Made by a program: the position numbers and the translations under genes. Positions 1,411 to 54,944 of a DNA stretch of 64,000 nt are shown piece by piece (positions within the stretch are counted from its first letter, which is position 1; every line of letters starts with the position of its first letter). The notes under the pieces are model-generated. The model saw only the letters and a program-made list of their open reading frames with translations, was not told the origin of the DNA and ran no database searches. Source of the stretch: Eledone cirrhosa (taxonomy: Eukaryota); assembly GCA_964016885.1 (NCBI GenBank), contig OZ024745.1, positions 24,428,001-24,492,000 on the forward strand, read 5' to 3'.

Positions 1411-1805
1411 GGTGGATTGGCAGTATCGGTAGAGAGTCGGACGCCATGCTTTCTAGCATAGTTACGTCTCTTTACAGACTGAGTTCAAATCTCACCGAGG
1501 TTAACTTTGCCTTTCATCCTTACGAGGTCGATAAAATAAAATACCAGTAATGTACTTGGTATTGCTGGCCTTGTGCCAAATGTAGAAACAATTATTTATA
1601 TAAGCATCAATGGCGGTAGATTGGCAGTATTGGTAGAAGGTCGGACGCCATGCTTTGCAGCATAGAGTTGCGCCCCTTTACAGTTTGAGTTCAATTCCTG
1701 CCGAGTTCAACTTTGCCTTTCATCCTTACGGGGTCCTATAAAATAAAGTACCAGTAATACACTGGAATAATTGCTGGCCTTGTGCAAAAAGTAGAAACAA
1801 TTATT
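1411..1805 (+). mobile_element. Two adjacent copies of the abundant tRNA-derived SINE
   Basis: A-box TGGCAGTATCGG, B-box GAGTTCAAATC, central TTTGCCTTTCATCCTTACGGGGTCGATAAAATAAAGTACCAG (resembles the Meta/MESC-type SINE domain); the second copy has a ~20-bp TSD AATTATTT(A/T)TATAAGCATCA. Confidence 0.85.
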
Positions 1806-2692: not shown

Positions 2693-2861
2693 TGTTTCTA
2701 CTTTTGGCACAAGGCCAGCAATACTCAGTACATTACTGGTACTTTATTTTATCGACTCCGTAAGGATGAAAGGCAAAGTTAACCTCGGCGGGATTTGAAC
2801 TCGGATCGTAAAGGAACGTAACTATGCTGGAAAGCATGTCCGACCCTCTACCGAAACTGCC
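2693..2861 (-). mobile_element. Same SINE inserted into a mariner-type MITE
   Basis: Reverse-complement copy flanked by the TSD AATTGAAATATAAT. Confidence 0.8.
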
Positions 2862-3752: not shown

Positions 3753-3809
<57 letters not shown>

Positions 3810-4000
3810 GGGCGGTGAATTGGCAGTATCGGTAGAGGGTCGGATGCCATGCTTTCCAGCATAGTTATGTCCCTTTATGGTCTGAGTTCAAATCCTGCCG
3901 AGGTTAACTTTGCCTTTCATCCTTACGGGGTTGATAAAATAAAGTACCAGTAATACACTGGGATAATCGCTGGCCTTGTGCCAAAAGTAGAAACAATTAT
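3810..4000 (+). mobile_element. Same SINE within a (TTA)n tract
   Basis: Full copy with (ATT)n on both sides. Confidence 0.85.
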
Positions 4001-4893: not shown

Positions 4894-4963
<70 letters not shown>

Positions 4964-5031
4964 CAAGGTCTAGCAAATAGAGAAAAAGTTTTTAAATAAA
5001 TTTTAAAAAATTCGCTGTACTTACTATATGT

Positions 5032-5113
5032 GCCTTTACCACGGTTTCATGTTCCTGAATAAACGGAAAATGCAAGCGGATTTTCATTGAGAAGGGAGCA
5101 ATCTTCAGAAGGC
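5032..5113 (-). ncRNA. Minimal type-I hammerhead ribozyme (inverted partner of 5543-5624)
   Basis: GCCTT-CUGAAGA..GAAA-CCGTGG-UA-AAGGC on the minus strand. Confidence 0.78.
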
Positions 5114-5542
5114 TCTTCCCCCTCGGAGAATATAAAATACCCGAGTTCAGATCACTAACTGACGCCATACAAAACCAGTCCCAAATGAGAGCGGATGATG
5201 AAAGAAATAATTCCGTCTGGTGCCGTGTGCAAAGACAAAAGGCAGGGTGGACAGATTGGAATACGGTTGGATAATACTTGTTTCCCTATATGTATTTTTT
5301 ACACGTAGGAATTCATACTTTATTATTATTGATCTCCCCCTAAGGTAGAGATAAAATGTTGGCCGTTTGGACTGCTGTTATTTCTAGTGGTAGGACATTG
5401 ACCTGTCCACCCTGCCTTTTGTCTTTGCACACGGCACCAGACAGAATTATTTCTTTCATCATCCGCTCTCATTTGGGAATGGTTTTGTATGGCGTTAGTT
5501 TGTGATTTGAACTCGGGAATTTTATATTCTCCGAGGAGAAGA

Positions 5543-5624
5543 GCCTTCTGAAGATTGCTCCCTTGTCAATGAAAATCCGCTTAGATTTTCCGTTTATTCT
5601 GGAGCATGAAACCGCGGTAAAGGC
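5543..5624 (+). ncRNA. Minimal type-I hammerhead ribozyme (Penelope type)
   Basis: Stem I GCCTT/AAGGC, CUGAAGA, stem II TGCTCC/GGAGCA, then GAAA-CCGCGG-UA (palindromic stem III, GUA cleavage triplet). Confidence 0.85.
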
Positions 5625-5819
5625 ACATATAGTAATTACAGCGAATTTTTTAAATTTTATTTTAAAACTTTTTCTCTATTTGCTAGAACTTGATTTTATA
5701 TGTTCTGGCTTGTTAATTTATTAACCCGCCATAGAACCACATTGGCATACGGTTGGATAATACTTGTTTCCCTATATGTATTTTTTACACGTTGGAATTC
5801 ATACTTTATTATATATATA

Positions 5820-7329: not shown

Positions 7330-7381
<52 letters not shown>

Positions 7382-7498
7382 TCCTAGAAAGGAACAATGC
7401 AGTTAATAATATGAATTGAAATCAACGCGTGAAAGGCAAGACTTTACAGCTCTAGCATCACTCCTTCGTAGTCAGCCTATGAACTTTTCAGCCTATCA

Positions 7499-7559
<61 letters not shown>

Positions 7560-8951: not shown

Positions 8952-9224
8952 AGGTTTGTGTCAATGTGTCTAACCTGGGGTTGAATAACTTAGAACTAAA
9001 CTGAGCTTCAGTTATTATTATTTGTAGTAAGGGCGGTGGATTGGCAGTATCGGTAGAACGTCGGACAATATGCTGTGTCGCATATAGTTACGGCACTTTA
9101 CTTTATTATTAAACCAAAATACTCAAACTTAAAAATCGATGCCTATGTATGTTGATGTTCTCTCTCTCTTTCACTCACTGCCTCCATCTCTCTCGCTCTC
9201 CCCATCTATCATAATTATGTTCAA

Positions 9225-9822: not shown

Positions 9823-9894
9823 GGTTCCATGGTGTAGTGGTTATCACGTTTACTTTACACGCAGAAGGTTGTCAATTCGAAACTCACTGGAGCC
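9823..9894 (+). pseudogene. tRNA-Val(TAC) pseudogene
   Basis: Same body with mismatches in the anticodon and T stems and a damaged B-box. Confidence 0.7.
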
Positions 9895-10155
9895 TCTAAA
9901 CTTCTATGTTTTTATAATTTGTGTAGTGTCATATTTTTTACATGCTCTGTTTAGTTACTCGATGATTTCAATTTCTAGAACTGTATATTTTACCTAAGAT
10001 GGAGACGAGACTGACCGGTGTTAGACAACTGTACCAGCTTTAGAAGCTAAAGATAGCTAACTGATCATATAGAAAAATGATTGTTAAACAACGGTTTCTA
10101 AATTTAAACTGTTTCTAAGTTTCATAAGACAATATTTGTAACAGAATGATCCTAT

Positions 10156-10228
10156 GGTTCCATGGTGTAGTGGTTATCACATCTGCTTCACACGCAGAAG
10201 GTCGTGAGTTCGAAACTCGCTGGAATCT
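10156..10228 (+). tRNA. tRNA-Val(CAC) on a Val(TAC)-type body
   Basis: Same as 10921 except anticodon loop TTCACAC and one G-U pair in the acceptor stem. Confidence 0.7.
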
Positions 10229-10535
10229 CTGTTCTTTTTTGTTTTGTTTTTTTGTTTTTAATTTGTGTAGTTTCATATTTGTTATAGGCTCATATATTTC
10301 TTTCATTTATCCACACGATGGTTTCAACTTCCAGTGTTTTGTATTTTTCCTAAGATGGAAATGAGGTGACCTCTGTTTTACAACACTACCACCCATGGAC
10401 GCTAAAATAGGTAACTGATCATATCAAAGTGTTTAGATCGTTAAACAACTCTTTCTAAATTTGAACAGCTTTCACTAAACTGAAACAAATGTAAATGTGT
10501 TTGATAAGACAATATTTGTAACGGAATAATTGTGT

Positions 10536-10572
10536 GGTTCTATGGTATAGTGGTTATCACATCTTCTGGAAG
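10536..10572 (+). pseudogene. Internally deleted tRNA-Val pseudogene
   Basis: 5' half joined directly to CTGGAA; same upstream flank as the other copies. Confidence 0.65.
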
Positions 10573-10920
10573 TTTTGTTAGCATTTAACATTTAACATTT
10601 CGAAATCTTCTATTTTTATCTTTAATTTCTTCGTATATTTTAGTTGTTACTGCAGTTTTTAAATTTATTGAAATTATAGAAACATGTTATATAGAAGAGG
10701 CTTAATACTATAGGATAGAAAACATTTGTTAGCAGGTCTGCGTAAATGTGTCTAAAGGCTGAACAGCTACAGTATGTGTCTTAGAACTAAACTGTGCTTT
10801 ATAAACACAGAGGGGATATAACATTTTTGCGTCACGTGTAAAAAGAAGACACATCTTTTGCTAAATTGAAACAAATGTAAAGATATTTATAAGGCAATAT
10901 TTGTAGCAAATTAATCATAT

Positions 10921-10993
10921 GGTTCCATGGTGTAGTGGTTATCACATCTGCTTTACACGCAGAAGGTCGTGAGTTCGAAACTCGCTGGAACCT
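10921..10993 (+). tRNA. tRNA-Val(TAC), the best-preserved copy of the array
   Basis: GGTTCCATGGTGTAGTGGTTATCACATCTGC-TTTACAC-GCAGAAGGTCGTGAGTTCGAAACTCGCTGGAACC; all stems pair; discriminator position is T. Confidence 0.85.
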
Positions 10994-11684
10994 TTGTTAG
11001 CTTCTGACATTTTTAGAAATCTTTTTTATCTCCATCATTAATTCCTACGTTTATTTTTGTTGTTACTGCATCTTCTTTAATTTTGTGTAATTATTGAAAG
11101 GCATGTTATATAAAGGAGGCTTGAAAATGAAATACATGAGGTCTTATATTACAAGATAGAAAACATTTGTAGGTAGGTCTGTATCAATGTGTCTAAGCAA
11201 AGGCTGAATTAAATATCTTAGAACTGTGAATATAAGTCAGGAATAAACATTTTAGGCATACAAAATACGTATAATGCTAAATTATTTTATGTAATGCTTT
11301 CGTGTGGTTCTGAATTGAAACAAATCTAAATATGTTTGATATGGCAACATTTGTAACGAATTAATCATATGGTTCCATGGAACCTTCGATTATCGTTTTT
11401 TTTTTATATTCTTGTTGTGTCGTACTTGTTAAAGACTCAGATATTTCTTCCATTCATTGACCCGATGATTTCAGTTTCCAGTGCTTTATAATTTTACCTG
11501 TGACAGAATGGGGCTGACCCGTGTGATACAACTGTACAAGATTTAGACGCTAAAGAGAAATAACTGATCACATCATAGTATTTAGATCGTTTAACAAGTG
11601 TTTCTAAATTTGTACATCATTTGTGGAATCAAAACAAATGTAAACGTGTTTGATAAGGCAATATTTGTAACAAAATACTTGCGT

Positions 11685-11756
11685 GGTTCCATGGTATAGT
11701 GGTTATCAAGTCTGCTTCACACAGAGAAGGTCGCGAGTTCGAAACTCGTTGAAAGC
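11685..11756 (+). pseudogene. tRNA-Val(CAC) pseudogene
   Basis: Same body with broken anticodon and acceptor stems. Confidence 0.7.
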
Positions 11757-12367
11757 ATTTTTTTTTTTATAGGCTCAGATATTACTTCCATTAATTTACA
11801 CTATGATTTCAATTCCCAGTGTTGTATATTTTAAATTCTATCATCTCATGGTCGATATATGTTGACCAAAACAAACAGAACTTTTTAGTCAGGTTTTCCC
11901 TTAAAGTTTCTCTCTTTTTCTCTCTAAGAAACCGCTACGTTGTCTCGAATATAGAGCCTTGGGAGATCATTCACAGAATAGCTTTCTCCAGAAATGAAGA
12001 AATGTAGACCAAGAAGTTGGCAATTTCTTTTCATAGAAATACAAATATATTATTGTAACAATGAAAAGATTGTCTACTGTACATTGTAGCAAGAAATGAT
12101 AATAAAATACTCTGAAGTTCAAACGTTCGAATCTGTATAAAACAATTGATAAAAAAACTTACTTATGTTTTTACTGTTTCTCCTATTATAACTATTGTGA
12201 GTTCGAATGCGAAGGGTATAAACATTATATGATATTCTAACTGTAATTTTCTTCAAATTACTACACACAGGCTGTCTTTACAAGCAAACCAGAAAATAAA
12301 GGGAAATATCAAAATATATCCTTGTGTTAATGCAATATTTCATACTTTCTTGCATTTCACCGTCAGT

Positions 12368-12872: not shown

Positions 12873-13313
12873 AATTTTTCTACTTTTGGCTCAAGGCCAT
12901 CAATTACCCAGTACATTACTGGTACTTTATTTTATCGATCCCGTAAGGATGATAGGCAAAGTTAACCTCGGCGGGATTTGAACTCAGACCGCAAAGGGAC
13001 GTAACTATGCTGGAAAGCATGGCGAGTACTAAATACACTCAATACAGTCTTATATAATCTGCTTAATATTATCAGTCGGTTAAAGGTGGTGGATTGGCAG
13101 TGTCGGTAGAGCGTCAGACAATACCCTTTATGGTATAGTGTTACGCCTCTTTACGATCTGAATTCAAATCCTACCGAGGTTAGCTTTGCCTTTCATCCTC
13201 GATCAATAAAATAAAGTACCAGTAATGCACTGAGGTCTATTTTATCGACCCCCCTCTCCCCATAAATTGTTGGCCTTGTGCATAAATCAGAAACGAATAT
13301 TATCAGTCGGTTA
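12873..13313. mobile_element. Divergently oriented pair of the same SINE
   Basis: Minus copy at ~12873-13023; plus copy at ~13084-13295 with an 18-bp TSD AATATTATCAGTCGGTTA (13065-13082 and 13296-13313). Confidence 0.85.
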
Positions 13314-27277: not shown

Positions 27278-28198
27278 GGTGGATTGGCAGTATCGGTAGA
27301 GGGTCGGACGCCATGTTTTGCAGCATAGAGTTACGGCTATTTATGATCTGAGCTCAAATCCCGCCGAGGTTAACTTTGCCTTTCATCCTTATGGGGTCGA
27401 TAAAATAAAGTACCAGTCGCGCACTGGGGTCGATTTAATCGACTTTCCCCTCCCCCCAAATTACTGGCCTTGTGCCTATATAAGATACCATTATTATTAT
27501 TGGTGGATTGGGCGGTGGGCTGGCAGTATCGGTAGAGGGTCGGACGCCATGCTTTCCAGCATAGTTACGTCCCTTTACGATCTGAGTTCAAATCCCGCCG
27601 AGGTTGACTTTGCCTTTCATCCTTACGGGGTCGATAATATAAAGTACCAGTAATGCACTGGATTATTGCTGGCCTTGTGCCTAAAGTAGAAATAATTATT
27701 ATTGGTGGATTGGCAGTATCGGTAGAGGGTCGGACGCGTTGCTTTGACGCATAGAGTTACGGCCCTTGCCATTCTGAGTTCAAATCCCGCCGAGGTTAAC
27801 TTTGCCTTTCATCCTTACGGGGTCGATAAAATAAAGTACCAGTAATGCACTGGGTGATTGCTGGCCTTGTGCCAAAAGTAGAAACAATTATTTGTGGATT
27901 GGCAGTATTGGTAGAGGGTCGGACGCGTTGCTTTGACGCATAGAATTATGGCCCTTGCCATTCTGAGTTCAAATCCCGCCGAGGTTAACTTTGCCTTTCA
28001 TCCTCACGGGGTCGATAAAATAAAGTACCAGTAATGCACTGGGTGATTGCTGGCCTTGTGCCAAAAGTAGAAACAATTATTTGTGGATTGGCAGTATTGG
28101 TAGAGGGTCGGACGCCATGCTTTGACGCATAGAATTATGGCCCTTGCCATTCTGAGTTCAAATCTCGCCGAGGTTAACTTTGCCTTTCATCCTTACGG
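27278..28198 (+). mobile_element. Five head-to-tail SINE copies
   Basis: Starts at ~27278, 27502, 27704, 27893 and 28083, separated only by short ATT runs; the last copy is truncated. Confidence 0.88.
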
Positions 28199-28929
28199 GA
28201 TTATTATTATTGTTATCATTAATATTATTTTTATTATTATTATTATTGCTATTATTCAAAAACTGGCAATGGTGTAGATCTTGGAAAACATGTTCAAGGC
28301 TAACGAATACGAGGAAATTACCGAACAATGTTAGTTATAATCACTTAACATTGTTATTTTCTGGGAGGTGCTTTATGTTTATCTTTCTAGAGCAAACCAC
28401 AAGAATTACGCAACATGTTGCTATAAGCCCAATATAGTTTTATATTACCATATATATGATGATTTCTTTATTCTATATATATAATAATATAAATACAGTT
28501 AATTAATGAAATAAAAACGAATCTGCGTCCCCTAAGTAGGGACACTATTTTGTTCTGTTTATGTGTTTCTATTGTTTTACAAGTAATCTACATAATATTC
28601 GTGCAATATCTATCATAAGGCTTGCTTCACAACTTCATCTGTGCCAGGTGAAGTTAGTAAAATTATAGACTTCATAAAATATATAATGAAGAATGGATAC
28701 CTAACACAAATAGCCACGAAGTATGAACAAAGAAAAACATTGTCTTCTGTCTTTAGGGATCCAACAGTATCAAAACAGAAGCTGAATTGAGATAATTGTG
28801 AAGAAAATACAAAGCAAAAAAGGCGAAATAACAACTACACAGATCTTCAGAATGCTAAAACGATAGCTAGAATATTCCCTACATCGCTATTACCTGAAAA
28901 GGCTAGGGCGTAAAATGGTGAAAGTAAAC

Positions 28930-29490: not shown

Positions 29491-29831
29491 AAACTCTGTA
29501 CGGCCGAAAGGCAGAGCTAATGTCAGTGGGAATTGAACTCAGAATGTAAAGGGTTGTAAGTCTGTGCCGAAAATTATGTTTCCGACACTGCCGGATACTG
29601 CCAATCTTTCGCCCTCTTACACCTACATATATGTATAAAGTAAATTACACATATTTACAAATTCCTCGAAATTTCTTGACTCAAACATGAAAGCTTCGTT
29701 ACCTTGTTAGCGATCGTCTTGAATTCTGCAAAGAACTTAAATAAATTTCGAAGAAAACATACATATATACATACATACATACATACATACATACATACAT
29801 ACATACATACATACATACATACATACATACA

Positions 29832-33694: not shown

Positions 33695-36600
33695 ACTCCG
33701 GTAGATATTTCAAATGCAAATGAGCTTTTGAATAACGCCAGACAAATATGTAACTTTTGGGGAGTACGGATCATTCTCCATAAACTCTCCCCCTGACTTG
33801 CGAAGAGAAGCTGCCTTGAAAACTGTGATTTTCAGGTGAATCTCAAACAAAACACGAAAACCGACTCAACTTTCACAAGGCGAAATTGAGTTGGCTTTAA
33901 AAAATGCCTTAAAAGACATTGCTTTTATTCAGAAGGGTAGACTCTACGGGAGTTTATCCATTCTAATGACAGACCAATTGGCGGCACAGAAATATTCTGT
34001 GTCGCCAATTGTGTCACCGCTGTTCACCTTTTTCCCCACTTACATGGGGAAAAGGACACAGAAAATAAAAATCCAAAGTATCACACCAAATATTGATATT
34101 TGGTGGGTACTATGTGGATTTTTAAACCACGAAACAGACTATATATATGGATAGGTAAGTCCTCCGGCGACCTGTTCAGCGGAACTAGCCTGGAAGTTCT
34201 GGTCCAAATGACACCAGAACGAATAGCTAGGATCCCGGAACGTGTGTTGCTGGATGGGCTTATATACATAAACATTTCGGTCGAGGGTAGGCGGCCCTCA
34301 TGTTACCACTGCTCAAGCAGGTGTCACCTGAGAGCTTACTGTCCTCGGCTAACTAGCCAAAAAAAGGCACTACTGCCAACACCTGCAACACCAGCACAAC
34401 AATCACCACCACCACCACAACAACAACAACATAAAAAAATAGTGACAACAAAACAAACGACAAACATAGTCCCACCCAACCCCTCCTCACCTAAAACAAC
34501 TCCAGAAACACCCACACATATATCAGCTCCCCAAAATGTACCCCTCCCCAACAACACGGATGAGGCCTCATCATCGTCACCCAGTGACGATGAGGGTGAG
34601 CCTTTCCGACCAGTAAAAAGAAAAAAGAAAAGACATAACAGAAACAAAAATGCAACAAACACACAAACACCAACACAAGCGACGCAAACAGCACAAACAA
34701 AAACACCCCCTCCTGAAAACAAAACACCTACTACAAAACGTAAACACACACAAGAACCACAGACAAAAAGCAACCCAACACAACAAAAATGTTACACCTA
34801 CATAAATACTAACAATAAAACTTTAAGAGACACCATATATAAAAACCCTTCGGGGGAGACCGAAGGGAAAACTTTTCCACACTCTTCGGAGAATCCTAAT
34901 CTTAAAATGATTAGGACCTCCATGAACACACATAAACAGTTGAAAGAAAGATTTCCTAACGACGTAGGTAACCCCTGCGTCAAACCCTACAAACGAGTCC
35001 TGTTAAAATGTTTCCCCACCTCCACCCCTATCCCACCAGACACCCCCTCCCCACCAAACATCTCTGTCCCCACCCCTCCAGAGACCACCACCCCACCAAA
35101 CAACCCCTCCAACACCCTCATGGAAATTGTGCAGCCTGGTCCCCAGGAGACGAAGAGGTGAGTGATTTCTTTTCCTCTTCTTTTAACTTTTCAGCACCAA
35201 CATGGCCAATATAAGAGTTGGATGTGTGAATGTACGCGGATGCCCTGGAAACAGGGCAAACTCTTAAACGACCTCAGGTCGCACAGTATGGATGGAGTAG
35301 CCATTTGCGAGTCCAGGATCCACAGCGAGCGACAACTGGCCCCCATCTTCGACGACTTTAAGACCTACGCATCTCTCTGTCAGCCGAGAGGTGGGGGTGG
35401 GGTTGCCGTTTTGCTGCGGAAACACCTGGACCTCATAACACAGATGGTACATCTGGACCCGGAGGGTCGACTGGTGGTCCTAGACGTTGACGGTAGTGAA
35501 GGTGGAGCCTTCAGGCTGGTAGCCTCATATGCCCCATCCGGGACACCGCGGCCAGACTTCTTCAAACGTCTAGAGACTTTTCTGGGAAATCCCGCTCCCT
35601 ACTGTTAGTGGGGGACTGGAATGGAATCCTAGATGCACATTGGTACTATGAGGGAGCATGTCCCGATAGAGGGGGGTGTAACGGCCTCATACAGTTAATC
35701 GGCCGATTTGACATGGCCGATAGATATCGACTAGATTTTCCGACTGTGCCACTGTGGACGTGGACTAATCGTAGCGGAACATCTAGATCGTACCTAGATA
35801 GGGTTCTAGTTAGAAAGAAGGATAAAGACATGTTAAGCTGTCCACAAATGTTCATGGTTGCCTATTCAGATCACAAATTAGTGACCTGCTTAATCAACCT
35901 TGACAAAACCCATAGACAGGGACCCGGCTACTGGAAGCTGAACTTGTCGTTACCGACATGCAAAGCCTACAGTAGACGGATTAGCACTTTAGTTAAGCAG
36001 CACTTGACGCGGGCCATTGTCAACAACAGATGGTGGTACTCTCTCAAAAGGGCAGTTAGATTAGACTCGATAGGTTTTAGTAAAGAATTAGTGTTAGATA
36101 GAAATAAGATCGAAAATGAACTGGTAGATAAAGTAGAAGAGGCACTTAGGAGTGGCAACGTAGCCAGCGTGCTAGCGACTAGAACAGACTTAGACCAGTT
36201 CTTCAACGCAAAACATGAAGTTTGCGTTGTCAGAAGCAAAATACGTGCTCTGGGAAACGAGGGAGCCAAAGTTGTTGGCTGGGCCCGAGCGAGGGAGGGG
36301 AAAAGTGGCAAGAAGTCCACGATTCGGTCTTCGAAGCAAATGTGCGCGGCCTTTCAGCGGCACTTTGCTCAACTGTTCGGGCAGGGCGGCGCGCCTGGAG
36401 GGGCTATGGATTTCGATTCGTACCTTGACGGCCTACCGCGACTCTCGGACAGCGAGGCGAAGTTCTGCGAAAGGCCGATTTCGGCCGCTGAGATAGGGGA
36501 CGCGCTGAGCCAATGCGGCAAACGCAAATCTCCAGGTCTCGATGGTCTACCCTACGAATTTTACGTAGCAATGCCGGACTTGTTCTCCGGTCTCCTGGAA

Positions 36601-38765
36601 GCGGTCTACTGCAACTGGCAGCAGAACGGGAAAATTCCCAGTTCTGTGACCAAGGGCGTAATCACGTTAGTCAGGAAGGACGAGGACAAGGGGGATGACA
36701 TAGGCAACTTCTGGCCCATAACTCTGCTCAACACAGAGTTACAAATTTGGGCCAAGGTGTTAGCAAAGAGGCTGGCGCTTGTCTTCGAAAACCTGGTCCA
36801 TACACGACAACCTCCACCTCGTGCGATACATCATAGAGAGGGTAGGGTGTAAACCCGGCTTCGGTGGCCCTGATCAACTTAGATCAGTCTAAGGCTTTCG
36901 ATAGGGTTGACCATCGTTACCTGGATGCGGTGCTCGAGGCGGCAGGTTTCGGACCCGTGTTCAGGGGCTGGATTGCTACAATGCACAGCAGCAACATCTA
37001 CTCAAAGGTCAAGGTGAACGGCTACCTCTCGGAGCCGTTCCATATCACGTGATCCATCCGACAGGGATGCTCTCTCTCCTCCCTTCTGTACGTACTGACT
37101 CTCGAGCCACTACCACGGAAGTTGGAGCTATTGGAGGGCATTCCTTTGGAACCGGGACTGCGGAAAGCGGCGTCGGCTTTCCGACGATGTAGTAGTAATG
37201 GTGTCGAGCACCTCGCAAATCGGGGAGATCGGCACCTTACTGGAGGAATATGAAAGGTTCACAGGAGCGAAGCTGAACCGGGACAAATCCGTCGCTTTGC
37301 AACTCGGAACGTGGAGAGGCAAACCGATGCCTTGCGATGACGTCGTCGGGGCTGGACGGAAGGACCGGTAAAGCTGCTCGGGGTCTGGTTTGGTCCGGAC
37401 CTCCAGGTGGAGAAGAACTGGAACGAGGTGACGGCCAAGGTGTTTGCGCTCACCCAGAAGTGGGCCGAGTGCAAACTATCCTTGAAAGGTCGAGCGGAGG
37501 TGGCGAACACTTTTATAGCGTCCGTCATCTACTACCGCTTGACCTTCGTGCCTTGTCCAGCCAAAACGCTCACCAAAATGGAGTGCGCGCTCTTCCAATT
37601 CCTTTGGAAGAAACGGGCTCCTTTGGTGAGAAGATCCATCTGCTGCTAACACCCTTCAAACGGAGGGCTGGGGATGCCGTGGCTGACGATGCGCAAACAC
37701 GCGTTCAGGCTGCGGCACCTCCACGTATTCTTCACCAGACAACCGGTGTGGGCCCCGTTCGTGAGGCGAACCTTCACACGACTCGTCTCGCTGACCGAGC
37801 TGCAGTCCTAGGTCAAGCAAAGACCGAGGTAAATGGGCGACTGGCACATCGAATGTGCTCAGGCGCTCACAGTCAAACGGACCCGGCGATCAGTGGAGAC
37901 TCCACTTCGACATTCTTTAGAGGGTTGGTCCGCAGCATGTGTGACGACACGCTCGGAGAAACTCTAGGCGTAGAGGAGGACAAACTGGCCAGTCTGTTCT
38001 GTAGGACCTTCCGCCCGGGACTAAAGGACAACTTCCAAAAGTCCCTGGCCTGGCAGTGCTACCGAGGAGCTCTACCAGTTCGAAACAAGCTCTACAGACA
38101 TGGGCGCCCGGGTAGGGACCCATCGATAAAGATCTGTCCGAGATGCGTGCGAGACGACGAAACCGTCGCACACGCTTGTACACTTCCCGGGCGTTACCGA
38201 CTTGTGGAGCTATGTAGAACGACTATTGTCGCGGGTGGGACCAATCCGAGTCCATTGTCATGATCAAACCGCCACCCTCATTCAAAAACGAGGGAGAGGC
38301 GGTTTTCCTATGTGTTATGGCTATGGTGAAAGAGGTTATATGGTGGACGAGGTTAAAAGGGCTGAGGTCAGACACCTTTCTCTCCGGCGAGCAACTGATT
38401 CGTTTTTTTCAAATACCATTTTGGAAGAAGAATCAGGATGGAGAGAGAGGTGCTATACCCCAGCAAATTTTATAAAAGGTGGGTGTATGTGGCAAAGATG
38501 GCCCGAGTGGTTGGGCCTTCTCTCTATATAAGCCTGTAGGTTGAGGAAAAAGAGGAAGAGAGGAAGGAAGTACTCACTCTTGGTGCTCCTGGAGATGAGG
38601 GTTGGACATATTTTCGGGGTGTGTACAACCCTTGTGTAACACCTCCCTCCTATTGAGGATTTCAATTGTTATTTGTTATTGTATTAATAGTTATATTTTC
38701 TGTATGTAAACTCCCCATTTGTATTTGTCCCCTTCTTTTGTGCCCTTGTGGCTAATAAAGAAATT
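33695..38765 (+). mobile_element. Near-full-length, frameshifted family B Tx1-like element
   Basis: ORF1 remnant (PVDISNANELL, CYHCSSRCHLRAYC) and fragmented APE/RT; distinct 3' UTR ending GCCCTTGTGGCTAATAAAGAAATT then (TATC)n. Confidence 0.92.
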
Positions 38766-39035
38766 TATCTATCTGTCTATCTATCTATCTATCTATCTAT
38801 CTGTCTCTATCTATCTCTATCTATCTCTGGGATGGACACACGCGTATAACTTGCTGAGTAAGTTCTGTTTAAATTTCTATAGAAATTCTTGTCTGATAAC
38901 TTTAATTTTTGTACCATTTTGTAGAGGGACTGCCAGGTCAAACTTTGATCTGGTCAGTCTCTCAAAATATTCTACGCCTTTAGGCGAAATAGTTAAAAAA
39001 AGTTTTTTCTTGTTGAAAAGTCAATATTTTTTTAA

Positions 39036-40817
39036 ATGGCCGAAGCTTCTTCACCAAAATTCGAAGGAGGAAAGGGGAAGATGAACTTACAGCTTCCCCC
39101 TGCCACTGTCACAGTAGCAGAGGTCAAGAAGATAGGTCAGCCAGAGGAAGAATTCTCTCCACCTGTTAACCGACAACTTGACGTTACCATGGCAACAACC
39201 CAAAGAACCAACAGCAACAACAACAACAATGCGACGGTAGAAAACAACACCAATAACAATAACAATAACAACAACAAGACCAATAACGGTGACAACAACA
39301 ACAATGATAACAACAACACCACCAACGACAACAACAACACAAACAAACAAAATTTCTCCTTCGCCGAGACGACAAGGAAAACCCTCGACTATCTGCCAGT
39401 AGATATAACAAAAGCGAAGGAGCTACTGGCGGATGCGAAAAAATATATAGTGTACGGGGAAAATGGTTCATTCACAATCCATTCCCCCCCGGAACTAAAA
39501 AGCCAGAGACTCCTAAACACGGTCATGTTTAGGACAATCTCGAACAAAAGTAAAAAACCAGCTCAACCATCACAGAGCGAGATAGAGCTGGTTTTAAAAG
39601 ACGTCATGAAGGACATCACCTTCATTCAGAAGGATAGACTCTACGGGAGTCTATCCATTCTCATGAAGGACAGGGACACAGCAGTGAAACTGTCCATCAA
39701 ACCAATCACATCCACCGCATACACCTTCTACCCTACGTACATGGGTAGAAGAACACAAAAAATAAAAATCCACACCATCCTGCCGATTATGGACATATGG
39801 TGGGTTTTGACAGGTTTTCTGGACCTGGAGGATGACATGCTGGTGTCCATGGGAAAGGCATCGGGTGACGCGTTCAGTGGAACGAGCCTCGAACTTGTAG
39901 TTCAAATGAGGCCCGAAAGGATCGCCCAGATCCCTGAACGCGTCATACTGGATGATCTAACCTTCATCAACATTACCGTTGAGGGTAGACGGCCCTCGTG
40001 TTACCTCTGCGGAACCAGAGGTCACCTGAGGGCTGTCTGTCCCCAACTTAATAAGAAAACCCCAATCCTGCCTACACCACCAACAACTGCACAACCAACA
40101 CAATCACCACAACAACCACTACAAAAACAACCACCACAGCTCAAACCAAAACAAAACAATGTCCAACCCATCCCCTCCACTCAAAAAACAAAAACAATTT
40201 CCAAAACACCCGTACCGCAAACACAACCCGAAAATATACCCCTCCCCTCCAACGCGGAAGATGACCCTAGTTCGTCGTCAGACGAGGAGGAGCACTTCCA
40301 CACAATCAAAAGAAAAAAAAGAAAACACACCTCAGACACACAAATGAAAAAAACCCCTCCCCAAAACATAACACTGACACCAACACAAAAGAGCTCACAA
40401 CAGCAAACAAAAAACACCACACAAAAACAAAAACATGCATACACATACATAAATACAAGAAACAAAAAACTGTTAAACATTGTGTACAACAACAATCTAA
40501 TAAAAACACAAGGGCCTAACTTCACCCAGGCAGGGGATTTCCCCCACCTCAAAATGATTAAGGCCCCACAGGACACCTATAAAACTTTAAAAAACAATTT
40601 TAAAGAGGACGTGGGTCCCCCCTGCGTCGGGCCCATTAACCGAGTCCTCCTAAAAAACTATCCCACCCCCTCCCCAAACACCCTCACAACTCCAAGCTCC
40701 CCAACCACACAACACACTGATGCCCCCACACTTCCACAAACCACCACCCCACCCAACAACCCATCCCCCACCCTAATGGAAATTGTGCAGCCCGATACCC
40801 GGGACGCAGAGAGGTAA
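39036..40817 (+). CDS. ORF1 (gag-like nucleic-acid-binding protein) of the Tx1-like LINE
   Basis: 593-aa ORF with a CCHC zinc knuckle (CYLCGTRGHLRAVC), a poly-Asn tract and a Pro/Thr/Gln-rich C-terminal half; homologous to the decayed ORF1 at 33.7-35.2 kb. Confidence 0.9.
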   Translation: MAEASSPKFEGGKGKMNLQLPPATVTVAEVKKIGQPEEEFSPPVNRQLDVTMATTQRTNSNNNNNATVENNTNNNNNNNNKTNNGDNNNNDNNNTTNDNNNTNKQNFSFAETTRKTLDYLPVDITKAKELLADAKKYIVYGENGSFTIHSPPELKSQRLLNTVMFRTISNKSKKPAQPSQSEIELVLKDVMKDITFIQKDRLYGSLSILMKDRDTAVKLSIKPITSTAYTFYPTYMGRRTQKIKIHTILPIMDIWWVLTGFLDLEDDMLVSMGKASGDAFSGTSLELVVQMRPERIAQIPERVILDDLTFINITVEGRRPSCYLCGTRGHLRAVCPQLNKKTPILPTPPTTAQPTQSPQQPLQKQPPQLKPKQNNVQPIPSTQKTKTISKTPVPQTQPENIPLPSNAEDDPSSSSDEEEHFHTIKRKKRKHTSDTQMKKTPPQNITLTPTQKSSQQQTKNTTQKQKHAYTYINTRNKKLLNIVYNNNLIKTQGPNFTQAGDFPHLKMIKAPQDTYKTLKNNFKEDVGPPCVGPINRVLLKNYPTPSPNTLTTPSSPTTQHTDAPTLPQTTTPPNNPSPTLMEIVQPDTRDAER

Positions 40818-40841
40818 GTGCCTTTTCTCTTCACCACCAAC

Positions 40842-43800
40842 ATGGCTATGCTAAGAGTAGGCTGTTTAAATGCGCGTGGCCTGGGCTCAACTTGGAAGCA
40901 AGCAATGCTTCTAAATGACCTCAGGTCACAACGTATAGATGTGATGGTTATTTGCGAGGCCCGGATCAGCAACGTGCGACAGCTGGCCCCCACCTTTGAT
41001 GACTTTGAGATGCACGCATCTCTCTGTCAGCCTGGAGGTGGGGGTGGAGTTGTCGTTCTGCTGCAAAAACATCTGGGTCTCGCAACACAGATGGTACATT
41101 TGGACCCGGAGGGTCGACTAGTGGTTCTGGACCTTGGCAGTGGTAAAGGCGGAGCGTTTAGGTTGGTAGCCGCCTACGGCCCTTTCGGGTCAATGCGGCC
41201 GGACTTCTTCCATCGTCTGGAGACTTTTCTAGGGACGTCCCGCTCCTTGCTATTAGTGGGGGACTGGAATGGTATCCTAGATGCACGTTGGGACTACGTA
41301 GGGGCCTGCCCCGATAGAGAGGGGTGTAATAGCCTCAAAGGGTTAATCGGTCGATTTGACCTGGCCGATAGATATCGACTAGATTTTCCGACTGCGCCAA
41401 CCTGGACTTGGGCAAATCGTAGCGGATCATCTAGGTCGTACCTAGATAGGTTCTTAGTTAGAATTAAGGATAAGGAATTTTTAAGTTGTCCAAAAATGCG
41501 CATTGTTGGCTATTCAGACCACAAATTAGTGACCTGCATGGTCAACCTTGACAGAACTCATAGACAGGGCCCCGGTTACTGGAAGCTCAACTTGTCCTTG
41601 CCGGCAAGTAGAGCCTACAGGAATCGGATTAGTACGTTAGTTAAGGAACGGTTGACTGGAGCGATCGTCAACAGCAGGTGGTGGGTATCTCTAAAGAGAG
41701 AGATTAGAGTAGTCTCGATAGAATTTAGTAAGGTTCTAGCTGCGGATAGGAATAGGAAGGAAAGGGAGCTAATAGATAGAGTAGAAGAGGCAATTAGAAG
41801 CGGCGACGTGGCCAGAGTGCTAGCGTCGAGAACGGCTTTGAGCCAGTTTTTCGACGCGAAGCACGAAGGCTGCGTTGTCCGAAGTAAAATACGTGCTCTA
41901 GGGAACGAGGGGACCAAAGCTGTTAGCTGGGCCCGCGTGACAGAGGCCAACAGTGGAACTAAATCCACCATCCGGTCTTTGCGAGACCTGGATGGACGGG
42001 CGATTCTTGAGCCTAAGCAGATGTGTGAGGCCTTTCAAAGGCACTTTGCCCGACTGTTCGGGAGGGGCGGGGAGCCGGTTGGGAACGTGGACTTCGGTCC
42101 ATACCTCGACGGCCTGCCGCGCCTCTCGGACAGGGAGGCGAAGTCCTGCGAGGAGCCGATTTCGGCCGCTGAGATAGAGGACGTGCTGAGCCAATGCGGC
42201 AAACGCAAATCCCCGGGTCTCGATGGTCTTCCTTACGAATTATATCTAGCTATGCCGGACTTGTTCCCCGATCTCCTCGAGGCGGTCTACTGCAACTGGC
42301 AACAGAACGGGAGAATTCCCTGTACTGTGACCAAGGGCGTAGTCACGCTAGTGAGGAAGGACGAGAACAAGGGGGACGAAATAAGTAACTTCAGGCCCAT
42401 AACACTGCTAAATACAGAGTTACAGATTTTGGCCAAGGTGCTAGCAAAGAGGTTGGCGCTTGTCGTGGGCAACCTGGTGGGAGATGCGCAGACATGCGCT
42501 ATCCCGTCCAGGTCCATCCATGACAACCTCCACCTCATGCGATACATCATAGAGAGGGTTGGGAACGAACCCGGCTTTGGTGGGGCTCTGATCAACTTGG
42601 ATCAATCTAAGGCGTTCGATAGGGTCGACCATGGTTACCTGGATGCGGTGCTAGCGGCGGCAGGCTTCGGACCCGTTTTCAGGGGCTGGATCACTGCTAT
42701 GCACAGCAGCCGCATCTGCTCTAGGGTCAAGGTGAACGGCTACCTCTCGGAGCCGTTCAAAATCGCGCGGTCCATCCGACAAGGGTGCCCTCTCTCCTCC
42801 CTTCTGTATGTATTGACTCTCGAGCCACTACTGCGGAAGTTGGAGTTGTTGCAGGGCATCCCTTTGGAACCGGGATTGCGGAAAGCGGTGTCGGCCTACG
42901 CCGATGACGTGACAGTAATGGTGTCGACGGCTTCCGAAATCGAGGCGGTCGGCACCTTACTGGAGGAGTACGAAAAGTTCACAGGGGCTAAGCTGAACCG
43001 GGACAAGTCGATCGGTTTGCAACTCGGCACGTGGAGGGGCAGACCGATGCCCTCCGATAGCGTCGTCGGACGCTGGACGGAGGGCCCGGTGAAGTTGCTC
43101 GGGGTCTGGTTCGGACCGGACCTCCAGGTGGAGAAAAACTGGGCGGAGGTTACGAACAGAGTGTTTGCACTGACCCAGAAGTGGGCCAGTTGCAAACTAT
43201 CCCTGAAAGGTCGGGCGGAGGTGGCGAACACCTACATAGCGTCCGTCATCTACTACCGCCTGACCGTAGTGCCCTGCCCAAGGGAAACCCTCACCAAGAT
43301 GGAGCGCGCGCTCTTCCAATTCCTTTGGAAGAGGCGGGCTCCTATGGTGAGGAGATCCATCTGCTGTCAACACCCTTCGAAAGGAGGGCTGGGGATGCCG
43401 TGGCTAATGATGCGTAAACACGCATTAAGGCTACGGCACCTCTACGTATTCCTCACCGGACAACCGGTGTGGGCCTCGTTTGTGAGACGAACCTTTCCCA
43501 GACTCGTCTCACTCACCGAGCTGCAATCCTGGGTCAAGCAAAGACCGAGAAAACTGGGCGCCTGGCACACTGAGTGTGCCCAGGCGCTCACCGCCCTCTG
43601 GCAGGCGGATCCGGTTATCAGTGGAGACTCCACCGCAACATTCTATAGAGGGCTGGTACGCAGCAGGTGCGACGACGCCCTCGGAGAAGCCCTAGACATG
43701 GAGGAGGACGAACTGGCCAGCCTTTTCGGTAGGACATTTAGCCCGGGACCTATGGACAACTTCCAGAAGTCCCTGGCCTGGCAGTGCTACCGAGGGGCTT

Positions 43801-44279
43801 TACCCGTTCGAGAAAGGCTCTACAGACACGGGCGCCCGGGTAGGGACCCCGCCAAAAAGATCTGTCCCAGATGCGTGTGCGACGAGGAAACCGTTGCACA
43901 CGCATTAGTACACTGCTCGGGCGTAGCCGATCTGTGGGGCTATGTCGAACAACTGCTGTCAAGGGTGGGACCGATCCGGTTGACCACCGAGTCTATTGTA
44001 ATGATCAAGCCGCCTCCCCCCTTCAAAGATGAAGCAGAGGCGGTGTTTCTGTGCGTAATAGCCATGGCGAAAGAGGTTGTATGGTGGACGCGTCTGAAAG
44101 GACTGAGGTCGGGCACCTTTCTCTCTGGCCAACAACTGGTCCGTTTCTTCCGATATCATTTCGGAAGAAGGATCAGGATGGAGAGAGAGGTGCTGCACCC
44201 CAGCCGTTTCTATGAAAGATGGGTGAAAGTGGCGAGAATGGCCCGTGTGAATGGGCCTTCACTCTACATCAGACTATAG
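40842..44279 (+). CDS. ORF2: AP endonuclease + reverse transcriptase + C-terminal zinc-binding domain
   Basis: APE motifs LNARGL, GDWNG, YLDRF, SDH; RT motifs KSPGLDGL, FRPITLLN, LDQSKAFDRV, RQGCPLS, YADD; terminal CPRC..EETVAHALVHC. First ATG is at 40842 (the ORF track starts at a GTG at 40818). Confidence 0.96.
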   Translation: MAMLRVGCLNARGLGSTWKQAMLLNDLRSQRIDVMVICEARISNVRQLAPTFDDFEMHASLCQPGGGGGVVVLLQKHLGLATQMVHLDPEGRLVVLDLGSGKGGAFRLVAAYGPFGSMRPDFFHRLETFLGTSRSLLLVGDWNGILDARWDYVGACPDREGCNSLKGLIGRFDLADRYRLDFPTAPTWTWANRSGSSRSYLDRFLVRIKDKEFLSCPKMRIVGYSDHKLVTCMVNLDRTHRQGPGYWKLNLSLPASRAYRNRISTLVKERLTGAIVNSRWWVSLKREIRVVSIEFSKVLAADRNRKERELIDRVEEAIRSGDVARVLASRTALSQFFDAKHEGCVVRSKIRALGNEGTKAVSWARVTEANSGTKSTIRSLRDLDGRAILEPKQMCEAFQRHFARLFGRGGEPVGNVDFGPYLDGLPRLSDREAKSCEEPISAAEIEDVLSQCGKRKSPGLDGLPYELYLAMPDLFPDLLEAVYCNWQQNGRIPCTVTKGVVTLVRKDENKGDEISNFRPITLLNTELQILAKVLAKRLALVVGNLVGDAQTCAIPSRSIHDNLHLMRYIIERVGNEPGFGGALINLDQSKAFDRVDHGYLDAVLAAAGFGPVFRGWITAMHSSRICSRVKVNGYLSEPFKIARSIRQGCPLSSLLYVLTLEPLLRKLELLQGIPLEPGLRKAVSAYADDVTVMVSTASEIEAVGTLLEEYEKFTGAKLNRDKSIGLQLGTWRGRPMPSDSVVGRWTEGPVKLLGVWFGPDLQVEKNWAEVTNRVFALTQKWASCKLSLKGRAEVANTYIASVIYYRLTVVPCPRETLTKMERALFQFLWKRRAPMVRRSICCQHPSKGGLGMPWLMMRKHALRLRHLYVFLTGQPVWASFVRRTFPRLVSLTELQSWVKQRPRKLGAWHTECAQALTALWQADPVISGDSTATFYRGLVRSRCDDALGEALDMEEDELASLFGRTFSPGPMDNFQKSLAWQCYRGALPVRERLYRHGRPGRDPAKKICPRCVCDEETVAHALVHCSGVADLWGYVEQLLSRVGPIRLTTESIVMIKPPPPFKDEAEAVFLCVIAMAKEVVWWTRLKGLRSGTFLSGQQLVRFFRYHFGRRIRMEREVLHPSRFYERWVKVARMARVNGPSLYIRL

Positions 44280-44570
44280 GTGAGGAAGATGAAAGACCAA
44301 GGGAGCACCCCTTCTCTGTGCTCCTGAGGAGAAGGGTTGCACACTTTTTTCGGGGGTGTGTGCGACCCCCCAAGGCGCCTCCTCTCTATTGAGGATTTTG
44401 TTAAAAATTTTATTTTTTGTTATATCTTATTTTATTTTTATATTTTGTTATTGCCTTCTCCTTATTGAGGACGCCTTTTTGTGTAAACTCCCCCCTTTGT
44501 ACTTGTCCCACTTTTGATGCCCTAGTGGCAAATAAAAGAAATATATCTATCTATCTATCTGTCTATCTAT

Positions 44571-47318: not shown

Positions 47319-47388
<70 letters not shown>

Positions 47389-47389
<1 letters not shown>

Positions 47390-47470
47390 TTCTTTACTAG
47401 CCACAAGGGCGCAACAAGAGATAGATAGATAGGGCCATACACAGGTAGATGTGCATACGCCAAGTCGATA
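47389..47470 (-). mobile_element. 3' tip of a Tx1-like lineage (family E) with a (TATC)n tail
   Basis: Minus strand reads GCGCCCTTGTGGCTAGTAAAAGAAA then (TCTA)n at ~47290-47388. Confidence 0.65.
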
Positions 47471-48880: not shown

Positions 48881-49444
48881 TGTAAGAAAATGAAATATCT
48901 CTGTAACGAATATTATTAGACTAAAATAAAGTACCAGTAATGCACTGGGTAATTGCTGGCCTTGTGCCTAAAGTAGAAACAATTATTAGACTATTTGCCA
49001 TGCAAGATTAGATTGAAAACTGCCGGGAACGGTCGAATTTACTGACAAAGAAATACATTTTATATTCAACCCAATGAAATAATCTTTTTAATTAAAATCT
49101 ACCTCAAAATAAGCAATGTGGAATCAACTTCCTAGAGGCATATATATTCGGTAACGAGACATACATTAAAAATATTAAATTTGCGGCTCACACTCTGCAA
49201 GTTTAATTAACCTTCAACGAAGTTGGATCTCATAGAAGGTTTCTTGCGTGTTTTAATGATAAGAGATCCCCAATCCTATCATAGAAAGCAATGTGAAATG
49301 AAGCGTGTTGCTTAACAACACAATTTGGACCATCAGGTCTTGGAATCGTATCGACGACTTTATGATGTAGTGAAAGAAAAATATCAAGAGAGAACGAGAG
49401 AGAGAGTGGGAGAGAGGGAGGAGGAGTGAGAGAGAGAGGGGGGA

Positions 49445-49507: not shown

Positions 49508-49659
49508 CAAATAATGGCCGGGGTTGGAGACTGAAATAATGTTTCTTTCTTTTTTTTGTGTTTGAGGGCCAGAGGAACAGGGTGAAAGGAAACCAATGAA
49601 ATGTGGCACTGATTTCCAATTGAGGCAGAATGTCAAAAAGTTTAAAGGAGGTGAAACTC

Positions 49660-50160
49660 AATTACATCGATTCCAGTAGATAACTGGTACTTTATTTCAT
49701 TGACCTCGGAAGATTGAAAGACAAAGTTGACCTCGGTAGGAATTGAACTCAGAACGTAGTAATTCCTAAGTAAATACTGCAAGACATTTTTACCGACGCT
49801 CTACCGACTTTTCCACCCCAGTGTCCAGTGGTGGGGAGGTCCATAAGTTTAATACATCGTCCCCAGTACTTGACTGGAATTTAATTTTATTGACCTCGAA
49901 AGGCCGAAAGACAAAGTTGACTACGGCGGGATTTGAACTCAGGATGTAGAAATCGGAACTAATACCGCAATCCCTTTTGTTGGACGCTCCACTGACTCTG
50001 CCATTCTACACCTCAGGCAAAAAGTAATAATGACTTCTGATTTTAGGCACAATGCCAACGATTTTTCTTTTTTTTGGGGGGGGGGGGGGGTCGATTAAAT
50101 TGACCCCAGTGCATTACTGGTTGTATATTTTATCGACCCCGTAGGGATAAAAGGAAAAGC
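49660..50160 (-). mobile_element. Cluster of older, degenerate SINE copies of the same superfamily
   Basis: Repeated GAAAGACAAAGTTGAC..GGATTTGAACTCAG motifs; similar remnants at ~26740-27020, 29490-29610, 53720-54170 and 62505-63005. Confidence 0.65.
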
Positions 50161-53270: not shown

Positions 53271-54200
53271 AGGCTATGATTAAGAAGCATAAAAAAATGT
53301 TCGTATGAACGATTACCGAGGTGAAAATTGAAAATGGCGGCGCATGATGAGTGTTGGGTAATGAGTTGCTTAGAGAAAGTGGAAACTAAAGAGAGGAAGG
53401 GAAAGAATGAGAAAGCAATGTATGGAGGGAAATGGTAAAAATAAATACAGGATAAGAAGAAGTGACAGATATGGTAGGGGATTCTAGAGGAGAGGTAAGA
53501 GGTGAAGGTGGAAGAAATTCAGAAATTACATAGGATTTAACCCTTATGGGCAACAGATAGAGAAAAAACTAGCCATCACACGAAGATACTTGTTAGTTTA
53601 ACTATAAGGCAGTAACAAAGGTCCAGTGCAAAATTTTGTATAATAATGCAAAACTTACGGAGCGATTTAACACGTGGAGTTGAGACACGAAACAAAAACA
53701 ACAGCGACAATAATAAAAATGACTTCTGATTTAGGCACAAGGCCAAAGCTTTTTTTTTTTTGGTGGGGAAGTCGATTAAATTCACCCCAGTGCATTACTA
53801 GTACTTTATATTCCTGAAGGATGAAAGGCAAAGCTAATCTCGGTGGGATACAAACTCAGATCATAAAGGGCCGTAACTACACGCTCTAAACATTATCTGA
53901 CTCTCTACCGATACTTCCAAATAATAAAAATAATAAAATGATTCCTACTATAGGCACAAGGCCACTAATTTGGGAAGAGGGGAAAGTCGATTTAATTGAC
54001 CCCAGTGCATTACTGGTACTTTATCTTATCAACCTGGTAAGGATGAAAGGCAAAGCTAACCTCGGTGCTATTTGAATTCAGAACGTAAAGCACCGCCGAG
54101 GTTAGCTTTGCCTTTCATCCTTGCCAGGTCTATAAAATAAAGTACCAGTAATGCACTGGGATCGATTTAATAACAACAATAATATTAATAATATTAATAA

Positions 54201-54474
54201 TGATTTCATTCATTAACCACAAGGGCCGACATGTAGGGTACAATACAAAGACAGGGACAGTGGGGGCTTTACAATAAGGTCGAGTCAAATTGCATAATGG
54301 CAAGACTATTTTAACAATGAAGATATAAAAAAATATAAAATAAACTATTCATAAATATAACAAAATAAATTTCCCTATAGGGGTGTGGACGACTCAGGGG
54401 TGACTCAGGTACCCCACCAATCCTGAACCACCCTGCCCTTCCATGGCACCTGGGGAGAGCACGCCTATAGGCTA
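54201..54474 (-). mobile_element. 3' UTR fragment of a Tx1-like sister lineage with an ATT-type tail
   Basis: Minus strand GTAAAGCCCCCACTGTCCCTGTCTTTGTATTGTACCC..GGCCCTTGTGGTTAATGAATGAAATC then ATTATTAATATT.., alignable by eye to the family C/D ends; begins AGCCTATAG, like the ORF2 stop context of families A-C. Confidence 0.7.
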
Positions 54475-54944
54475 ATTAATAATTGTTTCTACTTTAGGCA
54501 CAAGGCCAGCAATTACCCAGTGCATTAAAGTACCAGTAATGCACTGGGTAATTGCTGGCCTTGTGCCTAAAGTAGAAACAATTATTAATTAGCCTATAGG
54601 CGTGCTCTCCCCGGGTGCCATGGAAGGGCAGGGTGGTTCTGGATTGGTGGGGTACCTGAGTCACCCCTGAGTCGTCCACACCCCTGCTAATTAATAATAT
54701 TAATAAGAAGAATAACACCAATAAGAAGAAAACAATAACAACGATAATAATTTCTGTGTCATAGAGGAATGAATGTGTAATGATAACTATAATGAAATAA
54801 ATTAATTATGAATTGGATATAAATTATTGATTAAAAACAAAACAAAAACAGTTCAATATATAGAAATATAACCATAATCACATCGAAGACTGGTATGAAT
54901 ATTTAAATTGTAATTTAACCAAATATAGACATGACCTAATTTTA

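Follow-up and report, generated by a model that had tools for sequence, protein, structure and literature searches.

A SINE family with a Tx1-like 3' terminus and ATT-type insertion sites: a candidate SINE/Tx1 partnership

The locus and its SINE family

The window, by which we mean the whole 64-kb stretch of DNA analyzed here, is AT-rich (40.3% GC), repeat-rich eukaryotic DNA that contains, besides microsatellites and a small tRNA-Val cluster, a single SINE family and a single LINE group in nested arrays. The tRNA-Val genes and a pseudogene stand in tandem within repeated units at 9823-11768. A MITE-like repeat of ~210 bp with short terminal inverted repeats is found at 468-659, 2070-2200, 2402-2949, 7379-7503 and 16216-16429, and long inverted repeat pairs of no assigned identity lie at 4954-5701 (94% over 301 bp) and 57411-57752/59733-60068 (73% over 351 bp). 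Tracts of (ATT)3+ show a strong strand bias, with 16 on the + strand vs one (AAT)3+, that is explained only in part by SINE tails.

The focal SINE (13083..13295, +) is a long-form copy with a tRNA-like head, a body and a 24-nt Tx1-like terminus, and is 83.6% identical to the column majority of the main copies. It lies between two exact 18-bp repeats, AATATTATCAGTCGGTTA, the 5' copy of which (13065..13082, +) starts AATATTAT while the 3' copy (13296..13313, +) starts 24 nt past the beginning of the terminal stem. The terminal motif common to Tx1 (13272..13295, +) consists of a 3-bp stem, a CTTGT loop, a spacer and GAAA; in this copy it has diverged and one pair of its own stem is broken. An A-box-like Pol III motif (13095..13106, +) was identified by eye against the A-box consensus, and a B-box-like motif (13160..13171, +), also read by eye, gave a local match, made with no control, to the T-arm of the tRNA-Val genes of the window. 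Because both boxes were read by eye and neither ARAGORN nor Rfam calls a tRNA in the head, its sequence only suggests a tRNA origin of Pol III type. No Pfam domain above the cut-off was found in the SINE, and a protein search with a peptide from a frame of the SINE gave no match.

Eighteen 3' ends of this family occur on both strands of the 64 kb, one of them (54557) being an inverted duplicate of another (54507). The copies are short (180-225 bp), non-coding, interspersed and 79-95% identical to the column majority, and they come in two forms, a long one and one without ~30 nt ahead of the tail. They show target site duplications (TSDs) of variable length, a fixed 3' end and 5' truncation. 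We take this SINE to be of a type present in Octopus genomes, comparable with the tRNA-derived OK, OR1 and OR2 elements that Ohshima and Okada are said to have described in octopus in 1994. Octopus genomes presumably also hold a sister subfamily with a longer tail, still closer to the Tx1 3' UTR, of which there is no copy in this window.

The copies occupy varied settings. One (1609..1798, +; TSD 1590/1799) is inserted within the tail of another SINE (1410-1590), a second (2693..2861, -; TSD 2862-2875/2679-2692) is hosted by a copy of the ~210-bp MITE-like repeat, and a third (3809..3995, +) lies within an (ATT)n microsatellite. The remainder include a long-form copy at 15794..16008 (+; TSD 15775/16009), a 5'-truncated copy with its terminus kept (48924..48981, +; TSD 48912/48982) and a copy at 53721..53919 (-) with an exceptional TSD. 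Five units joined head-to-tail by ATT repeats form an array at 27278..28199 (+), the last unit being 3'-truncated; the unit at 27512-27694 has a 19-bp TSD that takes in the head of the next unit. We rejected independent insertion for the units at 27.9-28.2 kb, which are near-identical 189-bp tandem units.

Older, diverged relatives, all on the - strand and 66-73% identical to the majority, were found at 49611-50016, 62850-63010, 26785-26890 and 29500-29632, and one of them retains a decayed terminus at 49634. Two copies, 28083-28199 and 9030-9103, are devoid of the 3' terminus, yet ATT-like repeats follow them. They reflect either a later deletion or a tail-less insertion, and the latter would weaken a strict dependence on the tail. 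A 29-bp satellite of ~75 copies at 16583-18850 (+) has its origin in the head of a related, older SINE: it opens with the SINE 5' end and closes by resuming the SINE body. SINE-derived satellites are known in reptiles (PMC10702118; this and the other sources cited by PMC number are represented here by excerpts).

Tx1-like LINEs and their 3' ends

The LINEs form two sets of arrays, one at 19.8-25.0 kb (-) and the other at 32.4-46.9 kb (+), in which Pfam recognized Exo_endo_phos, RVT_1 and zf-RVT domains. Family A is represented by an apparently full-length element (38829..44542, +) flanked by (TATC)n. Its ORF1 (39036-40817, +) has the CCHC knuckle CYLCGTRGHLRAVC, its ORF2 frame (40818-44279, +) encodes an APE endonuclease, a reverse transcriptase (RT) and zf-RVT, and its terminal motif (44519..44542, +), with the stem GCC/GGC, runs into (TATC)n without poly(A). 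This apparently intact copy has a relative that is 99.4% identical over 3.1 kb. Family B (33698..38764, +) is 5'-truncated and frameshifted, with its terminal motif at 38742-38764. At least five Tx1-like lineages are nested in (TATC)n, at 19.8-25.1 kb (-), 32.4-46.9 kb (+) and 47388-47410 (-), and ten of the eleven Tx1-like 3' ends in the window run straight into this microsatellite.

These LINEs belong to the L1 group. They have two ORFs, an APE endonuclease, an RT and a C-terminal zinc finger of L1-group type, and in a structure search ORF2 matched LINE-1 ORF2p with an E value of 2.8e-48 vs 2.8e-19 for R2, with no RTE, CR1 or L2 chain among the best 10. A protein search with ORF2 returned 101 relatives, the closest at 69%, and a structure-cluster comparison of an ORF2 homologue returned only generic LINE clusters; the search with the ORF1 region gave no match. 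A CCHC zinc knuckle in ORF1 is a criterion of Tx1, unlike mammalian L1. By anatomy and by microsatellite targeting, the elements fit the Tx1 clade as it is described in the excerpts of PMC4494074 and PMC3812793.

Other LINE clades were searched for in several ways. Pfam on 25 long ORFs found Tx1-like elements only, no RT or endonuclease appeared in the 150 of 163 further open stretches that were scanned, and tblastn matches with ORF2 were confined to the Tx1 arrays; no remnants of RTE, L2, CR1 or R4 were detected in the 64-kb window.

One Tx1-like fragment departs from the (TATC)n pattern. Located at 54202..54483 (-) within a cluster of SINEs, with a SINE tail before it and two SINEs after it, the fragment comprises the last ORF2 codons (LLISL*) and a 3' UTR homologous to those of families A and B, and it ends in ATT repeats. 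Its local alignment scores were 131 vs family A and 93.5 vs family B, and 0/500 shuffles reached either. Based on the ORF2 codons and on this alignment, we rejected the possibility that it is not a LINE end. The ATT lineage proposed in the sequence-only reading thus survives as a real Tx1-like 3' UTR relative ending in ATT, but it is a single 280-bp, 5'-truncated fragment whose match to the SINE is weak.

Two inverted duplications overlap or adjoin this fragment. The first (54379-54688) is near-perfect, with arms of ~155 bp and two internal mismatches, and contains a SINE tail and the start of the ATT Tx1 3' UTR; its turning point is a small hairpin within the body of the SINE, and it looks like the product of a cDNA or DNA fold-back. 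The second (53940-54171) lies within a SINE copy directly after the ATT Tx1 end, and its arms are ~90% alike.

Target sites of the SINE

The insertion signature of the SINE differs from that of families A-E (ATT vs TATC) and matches that of the single ATT fragment: 0/18 SINE ends lie in (TATC)n, and 0/10 ends of the TATC families lie in ATT. Readable TSDs, that is, flanking repeats of 12-28 nt, accompany 11 of the 18 SINE ends. Ten came from a scan for flanking repeats of at least 12 nt, and the eleventh, 1590/1799, fell outside the scan filter and was verified directly; at the other seven ends no repeat of this minimum length was found. The register is fixed, since the 3' TSD copy begins 23-24 nt after the stem start in 11/11 readable cases.

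The motif ATTAT lies inside the first 8 nt of 10/11 readable TSDs (background 0.010), the exception being 53931/53720, which starts ATTTTTAT; a claim that every readable TSD has ATTAT at or near its start is therefore correct for all but one. The five TSD pairs cited in support of it were found again: 1590/1799 (20 nt, 1 mismatch), 2679/2862 (14 nt, element on the - strand), 13065/13296 (18 bp), 48912/48982 (12 nt) and ~15775/16008, a real pair (19 nt, 1 mismatch) whose second copy starts one base later, at 16009. Four sites (those of the ends at 2716, 13272, 15985 and 48958) are independent of other SINE tails, of ATT tracts and of the ATT fragment, and ATTAT is present in the TSD at 4/4 of them. 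In the case of the 2716 copy, three empty paralogous sites in the MITE-like repeat contain the TSD sequence once each; two of them read ATTAAT and the third AGTAAT, in contrast to the ATTAT of the occupied repeat copy. We rejected the idea that the ATTAT of the TSDs is the SINE tail counted twice, given that the 5' copies have ATTAT and that two of three empty sites have ATTA.

The preference for ATTAT targets is real. However, the proposal that TSDs starting with ATTAT point to Tx1 in particular did not hold, because a TSD start that matches the terminal repeat has been reported for RTE, L2, CR1 and L1 alike: in the excerpts of PMC6007223, the TSD start correlates with the terminal repeat in RTE, and 3' microhomology is described for L1, CR1 and L2. 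Such TSDs are not diagnostic of Tx1 and only show that the target matches the tail repeat.

A terminus shared by the SINE and the Tx1-like LINEs

The similarity between the SINE and the Tx1-like LINEs extends over ~24 nt at the exact terminus and in register, and poly(A) is present at 0/29 of their ends. The three end motifs quoted in the sequence-only reading are present, for the SINE at 48958 among others, for family B at 33191 and 38742, and for the ATT end at 54226 (-). A position weight matrix (PWM) built from 7/11 Tx1 ends was scanned over 127,948 positions: its top 11 hits were the Tx1 ends and the next 18 were all of the SINE ends (12.5-23.6 bits; best background, 11.4). Reciprocally, a PWM built from 16 SINE ends ranked the 18 SINE ends at the top, followed by 11/11 Tx1 ends (10.5-21.6 bits; family B at ranks 19-20), the decayed SINE end at 49634 and then the background. 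The two matrices, whose boundaries were set after the match had been seen and in which the SINE copies amount to one test, separate 29/29 ends from the background, and the Tx1-like character ascribed to the SINE terminus is borne out.

Over an iid background, a typical SINE score has a chance of 9.3e-8 per position. By arithmetic, this gives ~2e-5 for an end-to-end match (+/-5 nt each side) and ~0.02 when the terminal anchoring is dropped (the product of 9.3e-8, 2 spacers, ~366 SINE positions and ~270 UTR windows). When 96 windows were slid along the aligned Tx1 ends, a less post-hoc comparison, the top matches of two full SINE copies fell on the terminal diagonal. Pairwise alignments gave weaker evidence. 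With the short-form SINE end, family B was the top match (motif 38742-38764), reached by 6 and 7 of 2000 shuffles, so that the similarity of ~25 nt withstands a shuffled control; the corresponding counts were 31-116 for family A, 19 for E, 100 for the ATT fragment, 584 for D and 847 for C, and 12-827 with the long-form end. The tests against families A, C and D are marginal or null (19-847/2000), and the ATT fragment, reached by 100 and 594 of 2000 shuffles, ranks 28 of 29 with the SINE PWM as the second-weakest Tx1 match; we rejected it as a demonstrated partner on this weak match. Among Tx1 families, identity is 72-84% in the last 25 columns vs 42-65% in the upstream UTR (6/6 pairs), as expected of a cis signal. 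Judged from these sequence comparisons, the terminal similarity between Tx1 and the SINE is above chance.

A stem of 3 bp, a loop of 5 nt (mostly CTTGT), a spacer of 7-9 nt and GAAA make up the shared motif. The SINE and family B differ at two positions of the 11-mer, which are the two sides of one pair. At this middle pair the SINE has G-C and Tx1 has C-G (14 and 9 of 23 distinct rows, none unpaired), and slid controls score lower; the compensatory flip counts as one evolutionary event, not nine. The outer pair is broken in three SINE or Tx1 rows. RNAalifold returned 0 consensus pairs on the aligned ends, and folding of single sequences gave stem pair probabilities of 0.55-0.97 in 7/8 ends and of 0.03 in the ATT fragment. 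The hairpin is thus a predicted structure that may form in vivo.

Interpretation and alternative explanations

The likeness lies at the very end of both elements, keeps its register, is significant and includes a compensatory change at one stem pair that the sequence-only reading had missed, so that a link between the SINE and Tx1 is well supported. The partnership suggested in the sequence-only reading gains from these observations, but the best-matching families, A and B, target (TATC)n and not ATT. Because the (TATC)n families miss the target and the ATT fragment is the poorest match but one, the driver of the SINE is probably a Tx1 sub-lineage without intact copies in the window. Our main reading, to which we give a probability of about 0.6, is that the Tx1-tailed SINE is moved by an ATT-targeting sub-lineage of Tx1.

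We propose the following route for the features observed, namely the shared terminus, the fixed 3' register, the TSDs, the target classes and the ATT-ending Tx1-like 3' UTR. The last ~24 nt of the SINE would have been taken from the 3' terminus of a Tx1-clade element and would still mimic it. The SINE RNA would end in a small hairpin with a 3-bp stem and a CUUGU loop, GAAA(C/U) 12-14 nt further on and short AUU repeats, and the Tx1 ORF2 protein would bind this end like that of its own RNA, a stringent recognition without poly(A). The bottom strand would be nicked at an AT-rich site, the AUU repeats could pair with the freed ...ATAAT-3' end, and reverse transcription would start from a fixed register. 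TSDs of 12-20 bp starting with ATT, insertion in (ATT)n tracts and in the tails of other copies, and head-to-tail arrays would be the outcome. Protein binding, the position of the nick, the direction of descent and the identity of the driving family are the parts of this route that we infer. On the fuller proposal, that Tx1-clade LINEs drive the dominant SINE through the ~24-nt stem-loop without poly(A), that recognition of the RNA is a module separable from the choice of DNA target (TATC vs ATT) and that the terminal repeat of the SINE helps to choose the microsatellite, our opinion is evenly balanced.

A different partner is conceivable, and unlikely: the tail could be related to Tx1 while the SINE is in fact moved by a LINE from a different clade (RTE, CR1, L2 or Dong/R4) that has a closer version of this end, as after a 3'-end exchange. 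The SINE end differs from 11/11 Tx1 ends at the stem pair and is devoid of their AAT(A/G)AA-like hexamer, and exchange of SINE tails has been documented (PMC5786205). In Octopus vulgaris, which bears on the case only if the genome is of that genus, RTE, Dong-R4 and CR1 occur in large numbers and show recent activity (PMC13282606). A TSD start equal to the tail repeat is also a signature of RTE (PMC6007223), and Dong targets TAA repeats, in a snail as well (PMC3812793). However, the only non-SINE matches of the SINE PWM in the window are the 11 Tx1 ends, and the scanned open stretches (150/163) held no RT remnant other than Tx1. Dong in particular ends in sense-strand TAA, whereas the repeat of the SINE in element orientation is ATT, the opposite strand.

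It is also possible, although quite improbable, that families A and B, nested in (TATC)n, mobilize the SINE themselves, with an endonuclease that cuts loosely at AT^A and a target set by the RNA tail repeat. Family B is the top pairwise match, the AT^A step is present on the bottom strand of both target repeats, the ORFs of family A are intact and it includes copies with 99.4% identity, and tail repeats have been proposed to steer target choice in RTE (PMC6007223). Yet the target choice of Tx1 is credited mainly to its endonuclease (PMC4494074), the SINE copies (79-95% to the majority) are older than those of family A, and an ATT-ending Tx1-like lineage exists, so that a dedicated driver is available. 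The least probable explanation, and a highly doubtful one, is that the 24-nt likeness arose by chance or by convergence of short AT-rich ends and that the SINE is unrelated to Tx1. The match is short, its window was chosen post hoc, many windows were screened and its estimate rises to ~0.02 without terminal anchoring; against this, it runs end-to-end in register at the place expected a priori (~2e-5), the reciprocal profiles fully separate the ends from the background and both stem differences are exactly complementary.

Relation to known SINE/LINE systems and significance

Mobilization of the SINE by an ATT-targeting Tx1 sub-lineage, our preferred reading, has partial counterparts in other organisms. 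Crocodilian SINEU and Tx1-Mar (Kojima 2015, PMC4494074) are the nearest in clade: a SINE is credited to Tx1-clade machinery, the target preference is shared and tandem insertions sandwich a TSD. As excerpted, SINEU carries an snRNA head and a poly(A) tail, no LINE was found with its 3' end and the link was drawn by targets. The present SINE, which has a tRNA-like head, is linked by a common terminus that is not poly(A), and one fragment supports a common target. Kibi, Koshi and crocodilian Tx1 are further cases of Tx1-type LINEs within a microsatellite, whose targets are (TC)n, (TTC)n and (TTCC)n/(TTTC)n and for which no SINE partner is stated in the excerpts of PMC4494074 and PMC3812793; here the targets are (TATC)n and, probably, (ATT)n.

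Conserved L1-clade 3' ends common with SINEs, with a hairpin, compensatory changes and a conserved loop, have been described for ZmSINE2 and ZmSINE3 with LINE1-1_ZM (maize/sorghum) and for SINEX-3_CR with L1-1_CR in Chlamydomonas (PMC3472496, PMC3747384). Those pairs share ~50-80 nt and the Chlamydomonas pair ends in poly(A), whereas the present pair involves an animal Tx1-like element, shares ~24 nt and has a microsatellite as end and target. Among 58 SINE/LINE pairs surveyed by Ohshima (2012), three SINEs were L1-tailed, all from plants or algae, and stringent recognition was proposed to be ancestral in the L1 group (PMC3472496). The statement that L1-group elements usually recognize poly(A) holds as a tendency, but L1-clade pairs of the stringent type, with a hairpin tail, have been published for maize, sorghum and Chlamydomonas (PMC3472496, PMC3747384), as has the Tx1-mobilized SINEU (PMC4494074). 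Stringent L2, CR1, Nimb and RTE pairs of molluscs have a shared stem-loop tail and a short-repeat end (PMC4824008, PMC11481361, PMC4758252), but the partners named are CR1, CR1-Zenon, L2 and Nimb, and Tx1 is named in the excerpts of neither PMC4824008 nor PMC11481361. The bivalve pairs share 35-61 bp at 72-95% identity (PMC11481361) vs ~24 nt here.

No SINE with a Tx1 3' end, from octopus or elsewhere, was described among the matches listed in our literature search; Repbase, Dfam and SINEBase were outside its scope and may list this family, or its pairing with Tx1, already. Full-text matches listed for the SINE motif were all unrelated, and no useful match was obtained in supplements of PMC13282606 and PMC4758252. 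If the proposal is true, no stringent-type SINE/Tx1 pair with a shared tail would precede it in animals as far as this search shows; the pairing would be new and the mechanism a known one.

If the reading is true, stringent recognition in the L1 group would reach into animals through a Tx1 pair with a hairpin tail, and the hairpin common to all local Tx1 lineages would be a recognition module separable from the target module. Its 24-nt cis element would be directly mutable, with a compensatory test ready. If, in addition, the genome is that of an octopus, an engine would be named for a class that accounts for 11.6% of the O. vulgaris assembly, in which 80 L1-Tx1 families have been annotated (PMC13282606), and the pile-up of SINEs in ATT tracts and tandem arrays would be explained.
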